A stretch of DNA of 35,210 bases from a virus. Taxonomy: Duplodnaviria; Heunggongvirae; Uroviricota; Caudoviricetes. A model generated the notes under the pieces. That model saw only the letters and a list, made by a program, of their open reading frames with translations. It searched no databases and had not been told where the DNA came from. Positions 8,045 through 29,821 of the stretch are shown here, one piece after another; the first letter of the stretch is position 1, and each line of letters opens with the position of its first letter. The stretch spans positions 1-35,210 of the IMG/VR virus record IMGVR_UViG_2565956633_000004; one strand, written 5' to 3'. The position numbers and the translations under genes were made by a program.

Positions 8045-8400
8045 TACTGGTAATCCCCTTCTTCACCGTGGAACTCAAGATCAACCGTGCCTTCTTCGGC
8101 ATTATGGTTCGCTTCGCCGTGCAGCCAGGCAGACGACAGTACATAGACCTGACCGTTCGCCAGCTCGGCAGTGATTGTCATCTCATCAGACGAGGTGATT
8201 TTGTTCACCGGAAAATTCTTCGGCACCTTGAAGGTCCCTTTGACATAAGGCGCACGGTGAGTTTCCTTGCGGTCCACTGAACCGTCCAGGCCGATGATGT
8301 CATCATTGACCGTCCTGTTCATGGGCACCTCAATGCCGCCGGTCAGCGATAGCTGCTGACCGTCAATTTTGAAATAACAGGTTCCCCCGATACGGGCCAT
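8044..8400 (-). CDS. Tail tube protein (Mu gp40 family)
   Basis: 118-aa ORF immediately downstream of the sheath gene; size and position characteristic. Confidence 0.75.
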   Translation of the reverse strand: MARIGGTCYFKIDGQQLSLTGGIEVPMNRTVNDDIIGLDGSVDRKETHRAPYVKGTFKVPKNFPVNKITSSDEMTITAELANGQVYVLSSAWLHGEANHNAEEGTVDLEFHGEEGDYQ

Positions 8401-9896
8401 TATGCAGACTCCTCTGAATACTGAAGACGGAACTGATTAACCACGGCAAAGACACGCAGCTGGTTAACATAGTCAGGCGGGAACAGCGTGTTCAGGCGGT
8501 TCGGATCGCTGGCATCACGCTCCACAACCAGGTACTGCTTAAACAGTTCGTAGTTTTCCACGATCCCCGCACGCTCAAGCTGACGGTAGGTTGCCAGCAG
8601 TTCCCCTTTGATCACCGCCGGGGTGACAATCGCCTGACCGGGACCAAAGCGGGTACCGTCACTGGCAAGCTTGTGACGCCCGTACTTACTGGTAATGACG
8701 GATTTCAGTTTGCGCAGTACATACGCGCTGGTATGCAGTGTCTCACTGTCGAGGTAGCTGTTATCCGCAACCCCGTAAGCGTTTTTCCTGTACGTGGTGA
8801 CATCACGCTGAATGCGCAGTACCCCGCTTTCGACATACGCCGTTGCCACGCCATGAGACAGCAGGGTCTGTTGCTCGGTCATCGTGAACCGTTTCCCCTT
8901 CGGCGCAGGCAGCATACCCACCAGCTCACCGGTCTGCGTGGGACGTGCCGGATCGTTGCGGATAAACACCGCTGCGCGGGCGGTACGGCTTGCCGCCAGC
9001 TCGTCGGCAGGCGTCTGGGTCTCTTTTTCGTACCCCGCCAGGGTAATGTGCTGCTGGTTAAACTGGTCACCTGCGGTCACCAGTTCTGACAGCGAGCCGA
9101 TCTTTGCCGTATACACATGACCATACAGCTGACGCGCATAGCTCCAGCGACCGCTGGTATCGTTCATCTCGGTCACCAGCGTGTTAACGGAGGCCGTGTC
9201 GTTGAACGGCAGGCCGATATAATCAAACGGCTCATCCGCCATTGCAGCCACCGCGCTGGTGAGAACAGGAGCGCCCGTTCCGGCGGTCCCCGTCGCCACG
9301 GCAATCTGTACGCCCGCTGGCAGCACTTCGCCCCCACCAAAGCCGTAGTAATTGAGGCTGACAGGAATTTCATTCCCGCAAAGCCCCTTATGACGCGCGG
9401 TCAGTGTGACCACGCCTGCCGAAGATGAAGCCGTAAACGGCAGGGCCGGAACGGCATTGATGGCATCCTGGATACTGCTGGCAATCGTCGCAACGTTATC
9501 GCCGTTGGTCACCGGAGCCTGCACGCGGGTACGTCCCACATAGACATTCACCGTGCCGCTTTCGGTTGCTTCCCCGGTCACCGTCAGCGTAACCGTTGCC
9601 GCCGCGCCTGTGGCTTCCGGAACGGCAATCACATACAGCTCGCCAAACGGGTCGGTCTGGCGATAAGCCTCGACCATACGCGCCAGCTGACTTCCCGCAC
9701 CACAAATCTGGCGTGCATAGTCTGCCGACGGCATCAGTACCAGACTGTTGGCAACAATCTCTGCACCGTTATTGGCATGACCAATCAGCAGCGATGCTCC
9801 GCTGTCCTGTGCAGTATTCGCCGCCTGGTTATCCATTTCCGCATAAAACAGCGGAACCAGCGTATTCGACGGAATGGTGTTAAAGCTTATCGTCAT
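8400..9896 (-). CDS. Contractile tail sheath protein (Mu gp39 / L family)
   Basis: 498-aa ORF, AAGGTGA RBS, followed by tube gene with a 1-nt overlap. Confidence 0.85.
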   Translation of the reverse strand: MTISFNTIPSNTLVPLFYAEMDNQAANTAQDSGASLLIGHANNGAEIVANSLVLMPSADYARQICGAGSQLARMVEAYRQTDPFGELYVIAVPEATGAAATVTLTVTGEATESGTVNVYVGRTRVQAPVTNGDNVATIASSIQDAINAVPALPFTASSSAGVVTLTARHKGLCGNEIPVSLNYYGFGGGEVLPAGVQIAVATGTAGTGAPVLTSAVAAMADEPFDYIGLPFNDTASVNTLVTEMNDTSGRWSYARQLYGHVYTAKIGSLSELVTAGDQFNQQHITLAGYEKETQTPADELAASRTARAAVFIRNDPARPTQTGELVGMLPAPKGKRFTMTEQQTLLSHGVATAYVESGVLRIQRDVTTYRKNAYGVADNSYLDSETLHTSAYVLRKLKSVITSKYGRHKLASDGTRFGPGQAIVTPAVIKGELLATYRQLERAGIVENYELFKQYLVVERDASDPNRLNTLFPPDYVNQLRVFAVVNQFRLQYSEESA

Positions 9897-21422: not shown

Positions 21423-22175
21423 TTATCTTGTCACTTTTCTCAATTGTGTCTCTGCATATGCTTCTTCCTGCCAGCACTTTGTAACCAGTTTATCAATGAC
21501 ATCTGCATATCCTTTGTACCACTGATAATCCGTCAGATCCGGTACCAGCTTCTGGACATGATGCCGCGCCAGTGTGGTTGGTAAACGGCTAAACCGGTTT
21601 CCATTGCAACGCCCACAAATCTTATAAACAGGCGCACCATGAAGCCGGGTTCTTTTTTCATCCAGTACAATACCTTTCCCCTTACACCCTCTGCACGCTG
21701 TGCTGACCTCTCCCTTACCATGACAATGCTGACATAGTTCCTTCACCCACTCTTCCTTGATAACAGATTCCCCGCTTCTGGAGTGTTTCACCACTTCGCG
21801 CAATACATTATGAAATCCAGTACCAGCACAATGCTCACAGCGAGCCTTACTTGCCGCAGACCTGGAATAATCAGCAAAGGCAAAATTCACAAGGTAAGGG
21901 ATGATCTGTAACCGGGTTTCTTCACTCAATTTGTTCAATGTCGGGTTATCCAGTGCCATCGCGTAATTGAGCAGACCTTCAATCGCAAACTGAGGATCCT
22001 GAACACCAACTTTTGCCAGAAATAAGGCAAACCCAAGCGGTGCTTTCGACTGCACCATCCCCTGCGCAGCCATCACATCCGTAATCGTTAAACCACCCGA
22101 GCCTGTCGCCGGTGCCTCATCGCTCAATTTGGGAGATTTTGGGGAGTAATATTTTGGTAAGGCTTCAAGGTTCAT
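21423..22175 (-). CDS. Q: Late antiterminator Q (lambda Q family) with expanded CxxCxGxG zinc-finger repeats
   Basis: YSPKSP, TDVMAAQGM, FAFADYSRSAA...ARCEHCAGTG and C-terminal ...VTR parallel lambda Q as I recall it; four CxxCxGxG motifs; sits directly upstream of late promoter and S. Confidence 0.75.
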   Translation of the reverse strand: MNLEALPKYYSPKSPKLSDEAPATGSGGLTITDVMAAQGMVQSKAPLGFALFLAKVGVQDPQFAIEGLLNYAMALDNPTLNKLSEETRLQIIPYLVNFAFADYSRSAASKARCEHCAGTGFHNVLREVVKHSRSGESVIKEEWVKELCQHCHGKGEVSTACRGCKGKGIVLDEKRTRLHGAPVYKICGRCNGNRFSRLPTTLARHHVQKLVPDLTDYQWYKGYADVIDKLVTKCWQEEAYAETQLRKVTR

Positions 22176-27296: not shown

Positions 27297-27393
27297 ATAT
27301 CCTCCAAATATTGCGCGTTATGCATGTTATTTCACGCAAGTATTTTGCGCAAGTTGATTTGCTTATCACGCAATAAAGAAATGTAATAAACGC
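27297..27393. promoter_or_regulatory. Immunity-region operator/promoter block (divergent cI and cro promoters)
   Basis: Repeated CGCAA/TTGCG half-sites (ttgcgcg, cacgcaagtattttgcgcaag, cacgcaa) across the 97-bp intergenic region; cI ATG preceded by TAATAA close enough for a leaderless transcript. Confidence 0.6.
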
Positions 27394-28086
27394 ATGAACA
27401 TAGGAAAACGAGTCAGACAACTTCGCCAAGCGAAGAACATGAAAATCGCCGATCTCGCTGAAGCAATAGGAGTAGATGCGGCGAACATCTCGCGCTTAGA
27501 AACGGGTAAGCAGAAACAATTTACCGAACAAACACTGAGTAATATTGCCAAGAGCTTAGGTGTTGATATTGCTGATCTCTTTACCTCTGCCCTCAAAAGT
27601 AATACTGTATATAAAAACAGTAATGATGAGGATGTTGCGCAGGTGAAGGATGTGTTCCGTATTGAAATGTTGGATATCAGTGCCAGTGCGGGAAATGGCC
27701 TTATCCAGGGCGGTGATGTCATTGATGTGATTCATGCCATCGAATACAGAACTGATAATGCTGTATCAATGTTCGGCGGACGACCAGCCAATCACATCAA
27801 AGTTATCAACGTTCGTGGGGACAGTATGTGTCCAACCATTGAGCCAGGAGATCTCATCTTCGTTGATGTCAGCATCAATCAGTTTGATGGTGATGGTATA
27901 TATGTCTTTGGTTTTGATGACAAAATATACGTTAAAAGACTTCAAATGATTCCTGACAAACTGCTGGTGATTTCTGATAACCAGATTTACCGTGAATGGG
28001 GAATTACTAGCGAAAACGAACACCGATTCATGGTCTTTGGAAAGGTCTTAATCAGTCAGTCGCAAACCCTTAAGAGACATAATTAA
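27394..28086 (+). CDS. CI-type prophage repressor (HTH plus S24 LexA-like autopeptidase domain)
   Basis: 230 aa; N-terminal HTH (MKIADLAEAIGVDAANISRLETGK), C-terminal VRGDSMCPTIEPGDLIFVD...KIYVKRL S24 motifs. Confidence 0.9.
   Translation: MNIGKRVRQLRQAKNMKIADLAEAIGVDAANISRLETGKQKQFTEQTLSNIAKSLGVDIADLFTSALKSNTVYKNSNDEDVAQVKDVFRIEMLDISASAGNGLIQGGDVIDVIHAIEYRTDNAVSMFGGRPANHIKVINVRGDSMCPTIEPGDLIFVDVSINQFDGDGIYVFGFDDKIYVKRLQMIPDKLLVISDNQIYREWGITSENEHRFMVFGKVLISQSQTLKRHN
27603..27622. promoter_or_regulatory. Near-consensus LexA (SOS) box inside the cI coding sequence
   Basis: TACTGTATATAAAAACAGTA, a CTGT-N8-ACAG palindrome with TA flanks; differs from the E. coli consensus TACTGTATATATATACAGTA only in the central AT tract. 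Confidence 0.4.
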
Positions 28087-28103: not shown

Positions 28104-28128
28104 TCGGCCACCGAAAGGTGGCTTTTTA
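28104..28128 (+). terminator. Rho-independent terminator after cI
   Basis: GCCACC-GAAA-GGTGGC hairpin followed by TTTTTAT, 20 nt after the cI stop. Confidence 0.7.
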
Positions 28129-28140
28129 TCACCCATAATT

Positions 28141-28200
28141 TTGCACATCTCGCAAAATATTACTTGCGTATATCGCATTTTAATTTTATCTTTTGTTCCA
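28141..28200 (+). promoter_or_regulatory. Candidate early-left promoter/operator (pL/oL analog)
   Basis: TTGCAC ... CGCAAAATATTACTTGCGTATATCGCAT: the same CGCAA/TTGCG half-sites as in the cI-cro intergenic region. Confidence 0.45.
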
Positions 28201-28370
28201 GACCAACTACAGGATTACAACAAAATCTAGTTGCAACACGGTGCATGGTGCATGTGTCGTAAGCGGTCAGTAAATGTCAAAAACGAACAGTCAGGACGAC
28301 CACGAAGTAGCCGCCGGTGGCGTATGAATGACCGGATGATTCGTTAAATACTATGTGTAAGAGAGCGCAA

Positions 28371-28574
28371 ATGAACCGTTATTTCACATGCTCGTTTTGT
28401 GGCGCAAACGAGCTGCAGGCAAAAAAAATCATCGCCAAAGGCGGAAAAGATGAAGTTGCTATCTGCTCTGAGTGCGTAGTCTTGTGTGTAGGGGCATTAA
28501 TCAATATCAGCACAACTATTCAGTTCACACCAAATGAGAATGCGCCTTTAGATGCGCGGAAATCTGGAGGTTAA
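28371..28574 (+). CDS. Small ClpX N-terminal zinc-binding-domain-like protein (first early-left gene)
   Basis: MNRYFTCSFCGANELQAKKIIAKGGKDEVAICSECVVLC: CSFCG...K-I-A-G...ICxECVxLC parallels the ClpX C4 zinc-binding domain; no AAA+ module. Confidence 0.55.
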   Translation: MNRYFTCSFCGANELQAKKIIAKGGKDEVAICSECVVLCVGALINISTTIQFTPNENAPLDARKSGG

Positions 28575-28582
28575 AGAACAAA

Positions 28583-28858
28583 ATGAAAGTCCAGATTTTA
28601 AACAATAGTGGTGAAGTCGTTTGGTCATACGACATAGCCGCTCCTGTAGATCAGAGCGGCGATAGCTGGACCAATGGGAAACATCAGATTATGGCTGGAG
28701 TTGTATTCTCTTTACGCCGTGCTTTGGAACAGGCTGAAGTATTTCCATCAGACCCTGAATGGAAATGGCCTTTTTCTATTTGTCCAAATTCGGAGAGCAC
28801 ATTTCAGAAAATTGGTCAGAAAGTCGCACTCGAAGAGCATCAGCCAACTGTTTCCTGA
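28583..28858 (+). CDS. Hypothetical Trp-rich small protein
   Basis: 91-aa ORF 8 nt after the ClpX-ZBD-like stop; GGAGG upstream; 3' end overlaps a convergent ORF. Confidence 0.35.
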   Translation: MKVQILNNSGEVVWSYDIAAPVDQSGDSWTNGKHQIMAGVVFSLRRALEQAEVFPSDPEWKWPFSICPNSESTFQKIGQKVALEEHQPTVS

Positions 28859-29021
28859 TTTTTTCAGGTAACTCGTCGGCATCGCAGAAACAACAACGCT
28901 CGATCATGTTGAAAGCCGATTCGTAGAACTGTTTCTGCTGAGTGTCGCTGAGACAGGAAAAGAGCGACGTTACGATGATTTTATTAATTGCATTATCAAG
29001 TTCTTTTTCATCAAAAGTCAT
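28776..29021 (-). CDS. Hypothetical small protein, convergent to early-left operon
   Basis: 81-aa ORF with AAGGA RBS 9 nt upstream; AT-rich. Confidence 0.35.
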   Translation of the reverse strand: MTFDEKELDNAINKIIVTSLFSCLSDTQQKQFYESAFNMIERCCFCDADELPEKIRKQLADALRVRLSDQFSEMCSPNLDK

Positions 29022-29039
29022 TTGATTTTCCTTTTATGT

Positions 29040-29458
29040 ATACGGGCTTAAAAGGATACCACCGAGCCTGAAGTGGTGAAAAGACAGGCACATAACAGCT
29101 AAGTATTTTCAACCAGAGAGAATCCTTAGCGTTGTGGTGAATGCGGCTCAGCGCACGCGGGTTAAGGTTGAGGCTGACAGTCGACCTTCTGTGGATACCC
29201 ACCCGCCTGGTGTGCAACCTTCGCCAGGCACCGGGAGGCACCCGGCACCACAACTTTATGCTGTGTGTAGTCTTGGCGGTACCTGCTTGTACCCTTGCTT
29301 CCGGCTGGTACCGTCCTTTTTACAAAACAGAGAAGAGCATCACCGGACGACGGGCTCATAACCCAATCCATCCGGGCGGCAGTCACCGCAGGTGTTCTTC
29401 TCTGTTTTGTGGAGAAACTAACCGACCTTGCAGGGTCGATATGATGAGGAGCAGCAAA
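29040..29458. other. GC-rich, highly structured non-coding region (candidate ncRNA or regulatory leader)
   Basis: No credible ORF (overlapping frames give Arg/Cys-rich junk); nested dyads including a ~19-bp stem (29322-29344 pairing with 29391-29410) enclosing a 46-nt loop, CCGGG-AGGCA-CCCGG, two GGTACC-containing repeats. Confidence 0.4.
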
Positions 29459-29821
29459 ATGGCTAGCGAACGCAGTACTGATGTGCAGGCATTTATCGGG
29501 GAGCTGGACGGCGGCGTATTTGAAACCAAAATCGGCGCAGTTCTCAGTGAAGTCGCTTCCGGTGTGATGAACACGAAAACCAAAGGTAAGGTCTCGCTCA
29601 ACCTGGAAATCGAACCGTTTGATGAGAACCGAGTGAAAATCAAACACAAACTCTCATATGTTCGCCCGACTAACCGCGGGAAAATTTCCGAAGAAGACAC
29701 CACCGAAACGCCGATGTATGTCAATCGCGGTGGTCGCCTGACTATTCTGCAGGAAGACCAGGGACAGTTGCTGACTCTTGCCGGTGAACCTGACGGAAAA
29801 CTCCGCGCAGCAGGTCATTAA
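29459..29821 (+). CDS. YfdP-like protein (120 aa)
   Basis: Start re-assigned to ATG 29459 (GAGGAG 7 nt upstream); same length and position as CPS-53 yfdP. Confidence 0.55.
   Translation: MASERSTDVQAFIGELDGGVFETKIGAVLSEVASGVMNTKTKGKVSLNLEIEPFDENRVKIKHKLSYVRPTNRGKISEEDTTETPMYVNRGGRLTILQEDQGQLLTLAGEPDGKLRAAGH

Follow-up and report, generated by a model that had tools for sequence, protein, structure and literature searches.

What the DNA between the cI side of a lambdoid prophage and its first early-left gene encodes, if it encodes anything, is the question raised by positions 29040–29458 of the sequence analysed here. That sequence, which we call the window, is the whole 35,210-nucleotide stretch of IMG/VR record IMGVR_UViG_2565956633_000004, an SfV-like lambdoid prophage in which the first early-left gene is yfdP. 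A first-pass annotation had described the block as noncoding, much richer in GC than its flanks and full of nested dyads, and had offered a structured RNA, a processed leader or RNase III site, and a small inverted-repeat element as explanations. The GC content is indeed 0.56–0.585 across 29100–29400, compared with 0.39–0.45 in the flanks, and the dyads are present as listed: a long one with arms at 29322–29346 and 29386–29410 (25 nucleotides, 84% complementary), CCGGG-AGGCA-CCCGG at 29231–29245, and GGCGGTACC...GGTACCGTC at 29275–29315. We found a full-length relative of the STnc100 RNA in the 5′ two-thirds of the block; its helices covary across dozens of phages, which supports a structured RNA for this part. 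The block is mostly explained by a known family and is not categorically new; a second conserved hairpin, for which no family has been described, follows. We refer below to three parts, modules A, B and C, in 5′ to 3′ order.

At the Rfam gathering thresholds the whole window gave no match. In a permissive scan, however, module B (29101–29324, plus strand, comprising a core, a linker and a terminator) aligned end to end with the STnc100 model RF02076, over model positions 1–206 of 206, at 43.5 bits against a gathering cut-off of 47 bits (E = 6.4e-8), and a covariance model of our own, R1, built from 43 diverse copies, scored it at 80.1 bits (E of about 1e-18). RF02076 also matched the equivalent place in phiES15, ST64B and e14. 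Module B falls under the cut-off mainly because its P2 helix is wholly compensated, and also because its middle arm is different; as the score lies just below the cut-off, annotation pipelines miss it. The R1 scan found no second copy in the window, which has a PF03589 Q gene (21423–22175) but no late copy after it.

All the helices and invariant nucleotides of STnc100 (P1, AAU, P2 with its UNNGC loop, P4, P5 with its AGGCA loop, and the CACC 3′ strand) are present at 29131–29254, on the plus strand. P1 pairs 29131–29139 with 29246–29254 and is joined to P2 by AAU (J1/2); P2 pairs 29143–29147 with 29153–29158, with A29155 bulged and the loop UCAGC; P4 pairs 29206–29212 with 29222–29228; and P5 pairs 29231–29235 with 29241–29245 around AGGCA. 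A pseudoknot, which the RF02076 model does not contain, joins AAGGUUG (29164–29170) to CAACCUU (29215–29221) in the loop of P4. In the family at large, P1 (NNGGUG/CACCNN) and AAU lead into a 5-bp P2 that has one bulge and a UNNGC loop; an arm that varies between copies, P4 and P5 (CCGGG-AGGCA-CCCGG) come next, and the linker, also variable, is usually followed by a terminator. Module B thus has in common with STnc100 the four helices, the AAU junction, the UNNGC loop, the CACCGGGAGGCACCCGGCACCA block, the 3′ terminator and a prophage setting in Enterobacterales. It differs in its score below the cut-off, in having GCGGC rather than CCCCC in P2, in its middle arm and in the pseudoknot absent from the Rfam model; moreover, it lies behind cI in an early-left leader rather than in the late region after Q or stx2, and has no promoter at its 5′ end.

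Relatives were collected with an exact-motif scan of IMG/VR, which gave at least 120 loci, and with an R1 search, which added copies lacking the motif; species genomes, when scanned with a pattern that did not constrain the P5 stem, yielded 69 distinct copies, nearly all from genera of Enterobacterales. In a model-fitted alignment of 74 copies, which is biased towards the model, pairing is kept in 90.8% of cells at paired positions, compared with 40–45% after the partners are slid; of 26 pairs, 21 show changes on both sides, none of 500 shuffles reaches the observed values, and an unfitted MAFFT alignment agrees for P1 and P2. The P2 of the window, GCGGC/GC-A-CGC, is a full compensatory replacement of the canonical CCCCC/GG-A-GGG. 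For the pseudoknot, the strand in each of 42 representatives makes on average 5.98 contiguous pairs with its own loop, compared with 4.00 across copies (0 of 5000 permutations as high), and in phiES15 the pairing is compensated (AAGGCUG/CAGCCUU). Covariation extends to P1, P2 and P4; P5 and its loop are near-invariant even in the P5-free scan, where they were not selected for, with rare compensated variants such as GGUGG-AGGCA-CCACC in Kp4866-6. The minimum free energy (MFE) of module B by itself is weak evidence (z = −1.93); the covariation is decisive. The covariance-model scan and comparison of homologues that had been suggested as a check therefore gave a sub-cut-off STnc100 match together with compensatory changes, here and in module C (see below), and they identify 29101–29324, on sequence grounds, as a diverged and unannotated member of the STnc100/PasD family.

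These substitutions also bear on whether the block encodes a protein, either a YmfH-like one or an N-terminally extended YfdP. Two annotations would favour this: ymfH is annotated over the e14 copy in Escherichia coli K-12, and a 226-residue open reading frame (ORF) runs from 29141 into yfdP. The latter is an N-terminal extension of yfdP, however, and its equivalent in a 99.8% identical RefSeq genome is frameshifted according to the NCBI annotation pipeline (PGAP) and entered as a 'frameshifted hypothetical protein' pseudogene, in keeping with the earlier view that no credible coding frame crosses the block. SfV, ST64B and phiES15 annotate no gene there, and none of the records compared has an RNA annotation at this place. 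The substitutions in the helices are compensatory, and both the ribosome-binding site and the homology to PHROG and YfdP entries begin at 29459: on the plus strand, the yfdP start region (29423–29461), by fold and sequence, has a small hairpin (29423–29428 with 29433–29438), the Shine–Dalgarno sequence GAGGAG (29446–29451) and, seven bases after it, the ATG at 29459, from which a product of 120 residues matching phrog_204 and RefSeq YfdP would be made. A coding role for the block is therefore scarcely credible, and the RefSeq pseudogene and ymfH (window 29134–29444; 3079–3390 in L002 and 1635–1945 in L328) appear to be spurious ORFs overlying a structured RNA. The e14 copy (3175–3200 in L002) has a 1-nucleotide deletion in the P5 loop (AGGCA to GGCA), which also speaks against a protein, and CCCGA in place of CCCGG; it scores 63 bits, compared with 80 for the window, and seems to be decaying within a defective prophage.

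The core is followed on the plus strand by a single-stranded linker, UUUAUGCUGUGUGUAGUCUU (29255–29274), which is conserved within the early-left subfamily described below (SfV, ST64B, phiES15 and Kp4866-6) and is a possible seed or Hfq-contact region; no site complementary to it was found elsewhere in the window. An intrinsic terminator then occupies 29275–29321. In it GGCGGUACC (29275–29283) pairs with GGUACCGUC (29307–29315) across an extended loop of 23 nucleotides, and C and UUUUU (29317–29321) come next, as indicated by the sequence, the MFE fold and the STnc100 alignment, in which Rfam places the hairpin on the terminator of that family. The first-pass annotation had held that no hairpin in the block is followed by a U-tract, and that the hairpins are not simple terminators; the premise is wrong for this one, with C-UUUUU at 29316–29321. 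A simple terminator scan missed the 29275–29315 hairpin because its loop is longer than 8 nucleotides. The equivalent terminator stems in ST64B, Kp4866-6 and Stx2a_1447 differ and yet retain CUUUUUAC.

A riboswitch-like aptamer, too, might be expected to have a closing helix, a junction of several helices with a pseudoknot, and unpaired nucleotides that hardly vary, and to lie in a 5′ leader with a terminator after most copies; a small molecule bound by module B would then control the next terminator. We therefore compared the pairing of the core with the 5′ arm of the terminator in 43 non-redundant copies, and found no preference for a copy's own arm (−10.2 kcal/mol for own against −10.0 kcal/mol for cross pairings; 1215 of 5000 permutations as good). 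With no such copy-specific complementarity no expression platform is evident; furthermore, the linker varies freely in length and sequence, some copies have no terminator, and arrays of three to five copies are atypical of riboswitches, so that we regard this explanation as very unlikely. Since there is no alternative core–terminator pairing, any effect of the core on termination must be processive.

Module C (29318–29414, plus strand) is a long three-way hairpin. In the MFE fold its main stem of 24 bp pairs 29318–29341 with 29391–29414, and two branches arise from it on the same strand, CCGGA/UCCGG (29343–29347 with 29371–29375) and GCGG/CCGC (29376–29379 with 29386–29389). The fold has an energy of −58.2 kcal/mol (z = −5.66; none of 200 shuffles as stable). 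In the RNAalifold consensus of 15 variants, taken from E. coli, Salmonella and Klebsiella phages and IMG/VR contigs, seven pairs are kept through two-sided changes (for example, column 13/110 is CG in eight variants and GC in seven), which gives moderate covariation support. A permissive scan found no Rfam family matching module C. Nearly all of the variants start right after the U-tract of a terminator and end at GUGGAGA, 40–50 nucleotides before yfdP. A long continuous helix in a leader is a classic RNase III substrate, as in the lambda N leader, and the 24 bp found here compare with the approximately 20 bp or more of near-continuous double-stranded RNA expected of such a hairpin; by its structure, module C is a probable candidate for an RNase III processing hairpin.

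The same dyad had suggested an element acting at the level of DNA, namely a cruciform, a recombination site or a small mobile element of the inverted-repeat type, and its length and near-perfect symmetry as well as the mosaic boundaries at 29053–29059 and 29273 could be read in that way. However, the window holds one unit only, and a search for the unit of about 90 bp elsewhere gave, among the E. coli matches listed, a median of one place per genome, all beside yfdP, ymfH or hypothetical proteins and hence at the same prophage locus, with one copy per prophage in constant orientation. The arms covary like an RNA helix, G–U pairs are tolerated, the structure with its pseudoknot is strand-specific, the family has both Rfam and experimental evidence as RNA, and the modules are reshuffled as RNA units. 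A DNA element is thus highly improbable.

The tip of the first branch of module C, CGGGCUCAUAACCC (CGGGCTCATAACCC; 29351–29364, plus strand), has a stem of three G–C pairs and a 7-nucleotide loop, CUCAUAA, and over 14 nucleotides is the same as the anticodon arm of initiator tRNA-fMet from E. coli, down to the three G–C pairs and CAU. A 44-nucleotide tRNA query containing this stretch matched an annotated tRNA-Met in all 5426 complete E. coli genomes. When the flanks were fixed and the kernel left free, the tip was kept in 109 of 124 copies and CAU in 123, although this evidence for conservation is thin because the copies are closely related. ARAGORN called no tRNA gene in the window or in six related loci. 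Judged by sequence, the tip could be a mimic that serves as a decoy or binding site (for VapC-type tRNA-fMet nucleases, methionyl-tRNA synthetase or the 30S P site, for example), or it could be a tRNA-derived relic.

In two other loci, L027 (10100–10300) and L168 (7945–8050), module C lies upstream of module B, and the last 7–8 nucleotides of its 3′ arm (CUGUUGUG) are at the same time the 5′ strand of P1. The C stem and P1 are therefore mutually exclusive in these loci, an arrangement that may constitute an RNA switch, and the inverted order implies that the modules are reshuffled as units and may cooperate. As a separate observation, two T-arm-like hairpins, GTCTGGTTCGATTCCAGAC and GGTCCGTTCGATTCGGAC, lie just upstream of a diverged STnc100-type element in the Stx2a phage L005 (2265–2345) and the Klebsiella phage L006 (2203–2290), where ARAGORN likewise reported no tRNA.

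In order to see how the block might be transcribed, we considered its genomic setting. The LexA-type cI gene (27394–28086) runs rightward and has a terminator at its end (28106–28123). Immediately after this, at 28140–28195 on the plus strand and some 900 nucleotides upstream of the block, we noted the half-sites TCGCAAAATATTACTTGCGTATATCGCA together with TTGCGT-17-TATCTT; CGCAA/TTGCG half-sites are common to this region and to the operators between cI and cro (27300–27390), and it is likely, from its sequence, to be the OL/PL of the prophage, the promoter itself being putative. No CI operators lie immediately upstream of the element. Downstream of the block come yfdP, yfdQ (DUF2303), a yfdR-type nucleotidase gene and an exonuclease gene, followed in the SfV reference record by xis and int. 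The minus strand carries, running leftward, cro, a CII-like gene, the Q gene and those for replication, lysis and structural proteins. From this gene arrangement the block is the leader of the early-left operon.

A plus-strand scan found no promoter belonging to module B itself. By eye, a sigma-70 match, AAGACA-17-TATTTT (29076–29104), can be discerned, but it is weak and not conserved in the Klebsiella phage L130. At the corresponding place in K-12, Reg-Seq recorded almost no promoter activity and no constitutive promoter before the e14 'ymfH', which belongs, with xisE and intE, to the YmfT iModulon and is linked to induction (PMC12133099); beyond this remark we found little literature on ymfH, EcOnc27 or put-like RNAs. 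Because neither this locus nor e14 has a convincing promoter, we read the window copy as part of the PL transcript and not as a free-standing gene.

Taking these results together, we propose, with a probability of roughly 0.5, that the block is an attenuating structured RNA leader that releases an STnc100-type RNA and then presents an RNase III-type hairpin ahead of the yfdP operon. On derepression, transcription would start at the PL-like promoter just after cI, near 28165–28200, cross two small genes and enter module B, where the terminator at 29275–29321 would act as an early stop, like lambda tL1, with many or most transcripts ending at 29317–29322. The product, with its stable structured 3′ end, would be the STnc100-type RNA, a kind of RNA that accumulates and is Hfq-bound in other prophages. 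Read-through would produce module C, the 24-bp stem of which would most likely be a site of RNase III processing or stability, and cleavage there would cut the yfdP message away from the structured RNA and set the level of yfdP translation, as in the lambda N leader.

In lambda, the PL leader has nutL, then an RNase III hairpin and then N, with tL1 as an early terminator. The window resembles it in having a regulatory RNA site, a long processing-type hairpin before the ribosome-binding site of the first gene and a terminator early on that controls access to the delayed-early genes, but differs in that there is no boxA or boxB, no N is seen and the terminator precedes the hairpin. Several points weigh against our proposal. 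The strength of the terminator is uncertain because its loop, at 23 nucleotides, is unusually long, and in the early-left copies of L013 and L027 the next hairpin has no U-tract, so that an immediate terminator is not universal; the PL assignment, the efficiency of termination and the RNase III cleavage are all steps that we infer for this locus. In addition, neither an attenuator nor a base-pairing small RNA (sRNA) accounts for the near-invariance across genera of the pseudoknotted core and its loops (AAU, UNNGC and AGGCA), or for adequate read-through where no N-like gene is seen.

The positions of family members were classified with a small reference set: of 140 copies, 93 lie in the late region (Q upstream and/or lysis genes downstream), 23 behind cI and/or ahead of yfdP or yfdQ, and 24 were left unclassified, five of these lying just after lysis genes. 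Wherever a neighbouring gene was recognisable it was co-oriented with the copy (121 of 121; none opposite). In 32 of the 34 copies with a clear TTGAC-N-TAnnnT promoter, the −10 hexamer ends exactly 8 nucleotides before GGUGAAU, so that the fold starts at about +1. A strict search found a terminator within 160 nucleotides in 82 of 135 copies. Arrays of two to five copies occur; those of three to five are in L076 (4378–5465, with a further stretch at 8378–8521), L019 (2320–3352) and L029 (371–994), spaced by about 250 nucleotides in L029 and L076, most copies having a terminator. Late copies have Q proteins of different families beside them (PF03589, PF06530 and one without a Pfam match). Between Q and the holin gene, phage HK639 has a full STnc100-type copy (44809–44981 in L009; 87.6 bits) that begins at about +1 of a TTGACT-17-TAATTT promoter; the GenBank record of the phage annotates only the terminator of this copy, and the same phage has an annotated putL-like RNA.

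A GCGGC-type or closely related P2 is common to SfV, e14, ST64B, phiES15, Kp4882-1, L013, L021, L027 and L101, and marks the early-left subfamily. Its copies with a resolved gene context, all but that of L021, lie behind a cI-type or other repressor-like gene, and the order cI, small genes, element, first early-left gene is found in SfV, e14, ST64B, phiES15, Stx2a_1447, L013, L101 and L027. In phiES15, kil starts 28 nucleotides after the terminator of the element, and the early-left genes are therefore reached by read-through. No N-like gene is annotated at the early-left loci, and a comparison of small ORFs revealed no small protein shared upstream. In ST64B, an isrK match (RF01394; 64.3 bits, above the gathering score) lies on the minus strand at 21–97 of L003, inside the annotated transcriptional-regulator gene sb41.

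In the literature that we found, STnc100 is known only as a prophage 'sRNA' and no function is assigned to its conserved fold. Eleven copies are transcribed in strain EDL933, one of them confirmed by Northern blotting (PMC5331693), and a copy lies 75 nucleotides after stx2B (PMC12370729). The stx2B-adjacent copy overlaps the Hfq-bound EcOnc27, overexpression of which alters fimZ and espA transcript levels, and variants beside stx2 have been linked to clinical outcome (PMC12711010). A 2026 preprint (Zhu, Shabalina & Storz) reports that STnc100 is structurally homologous to PasD1 and PasD2, abundant Hfq-bound sRNAs of prophages in enteropathogenic E. coli, of which the usual neighbour is Q. Set beside the window copy by description rather than by sequence, PasD1 and PasD2 are likewise prophage-borne, with homology to STnc100 on the authors' report, but they lie in the late region with Q and LpxR as neighbours.

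These data raise the possibility that module B is an independent, trans-acting Hfq sRNA gene (a 'moron') with a promoter in module A, its own terminator and no role in cis for yfdP. The family is Hfq-bound and gives chimeras with many mRNAs in RIL-seq (sequencing of ligated, interacting RNAs), EcOnc27 has the effects just described, many copies come with a sigma-70 promoter and terminator of their own and stand in arrays, and the linker and terminator vary between subfamilies like the seeds of diversifying sRNAs. For the window copy we nevertheless consider this unlikely, given that it has no convincing promoter and the e14 copy no constitutive one, that the downstream early genes of phiES15 leave no room for a promoter of their own, that strict co-orientation and position at the head of an operon are left unexplained, and that the conserved part is the folded core rather than a seed.

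Operon-head RNAs of another kind are the PR′–tR′ leader RNAs, such as lambda 6S RNA and StxS, which arise when, without antitermination, the terminator at the head of an operon halts transcription; StxS is reportedly an Hfq sRNA. They resemble the present family as short RNAs at operon heads, and late-region members of the family start at +1 of the promoter after Q, but their sequence and fold are unrelated, and the window copy is not at PR′.

The placement of the family invites comparison with the put RNAs of HK022 and HK639. Module B might be a cis-acting processive antiterminator, functionally like HK022 put, that binds the polymerase transcribing it, carries it through terminators and replaces N. 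Copies stand only at the heads of long operons, in the same orientation, either behind cI where no N is seen or between Q and the lysis genes; L027, where two late copies accompany a single early-left one of the window's subtype, recalls putL and putR; and the downstream genes need read-through. The fold begins at about +1 in the 32 copies noted above, which may be compared with put RNA, which begins at +3 of the PL transcript (PMC9378689). A conserved host partner is also indicated, because there is no conserved upstream phage protein, the Q families differ and the loops are near-invariant across genera. HK022 putL and putR and the HK639 putL-like RNA are, like the family, structured RNAs near the starts of early or late operons in lambdoid phages where no N is seen, with terminators following, and put RNA resembles the promoter-bearing STnc100-type copies in that its fold lies at or near +1. 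However, put RNA has 70 nucleotides and two stems, whereas the core of module B has about 125 nucleotides, four helices and a pseudoknot, and the two have no similarity of sequence or fold. Homology to put RNA was rejected: none was apparent when HK022 putL was inspected or when the HK639 putL-like RNA was aligned, and R1 misses both the HK022 immunity region and HK639 putL.

The absence of any likeness in sequence or architecture to HK022 putL or the HK639 putL-like RNA counts against a put-like function too, as does the presence in HK639 of both the putL-like RNA and a late-region copy of the family beside its Q gene. Moreover, terminated STnc100/PasD RNAs accumulate in lysogens, so that many polymerases do stop, and the tandem arrays of three to five copies, most with a terminator, resemble arrays of sRNA genes. 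Such antitermination is accordingly the main rival to our proposal, though an unlikely one. We hold equally doubtful the wider proposal that the STnc100/PasD fold is a second, structurally unrelated class of polymerase-directed cis antiterminator, or some other leader that binds the host machinery, and, as a separate point, that module C displays a mimic of the initiator-tRNA anticodon arm. If the former were true, the fold would mark the early-left and late operon heads of N-less lambdoid phages, and the 'sRNAs' of lysogens would be terminated by-products.

In pathogenic E. coli, few prophage transcripts are more abundant than the STnc100/PasD RNAs, yet these are treated as ordinary base-pairing sRNAs. 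What this locus adds is a diverged early-left subfamily, missed by pipelines or mislabelled as ymfH or as a frameshifted pseudogene; a pseudoknot that covaries; strict, co-oriented placement at operon heads, often from +1; and the lack of a phage-encoded partner conserved across the early-left loci. The question of how phages of the SfV, ST64B and e14 type pass their early terminators, when no N gene is seen in them, is thereby sharpened. The locus is widespread: 29000–29480 is 98.1% identical to Shigella phage SfV and is matched at least in part in 2865 of the 5426 complete E. coli genomes, and over at least 80% of its length in 1654, so that about half of them, K-12 with its e14 included, match some or all of the block.

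Module A (29053–29098, plus strand), a conserved block of 46 nucleotides with the hairpin CCACCGAGCCUGAAGUGGUG at 29058–29077, lies in the gap between an 81-residue minus-strand ORF (28776–29021) and module B. It is 95–97% identical in two Klebsiella phages, in L130 with module B next to it and in L131 without module B, between divergent genes. The hairpin is terminator-like on the minus strand, and module A could be the promoter or operator of the divergent pair, or a minus-strand terminator. The 81-residue ORF, which matches phrog_3311, had been called convergent; as its start codon (29021) adjoins and faces the block, it is in fact divergent from yfdP, and it is convergent only with a 91-residue plus-strand ORF (28583–28858; phrog_3195).

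The two small genes that the PL transcript would cross are this 91-residue ORF and, directly downstream of the putative PL, a plus-strand ORF of 73 residues (28353–28574) with a ClpX-type C4 zinc finger (PF06689; E = 1.4e-10), the product of which might interfere with ClpX substrates or adaptors. The convergent 91- and 81-residue ORFs overlap by 83 nucleotides, and their counterparts in e14 are annotated as ymfJ and ymfI.

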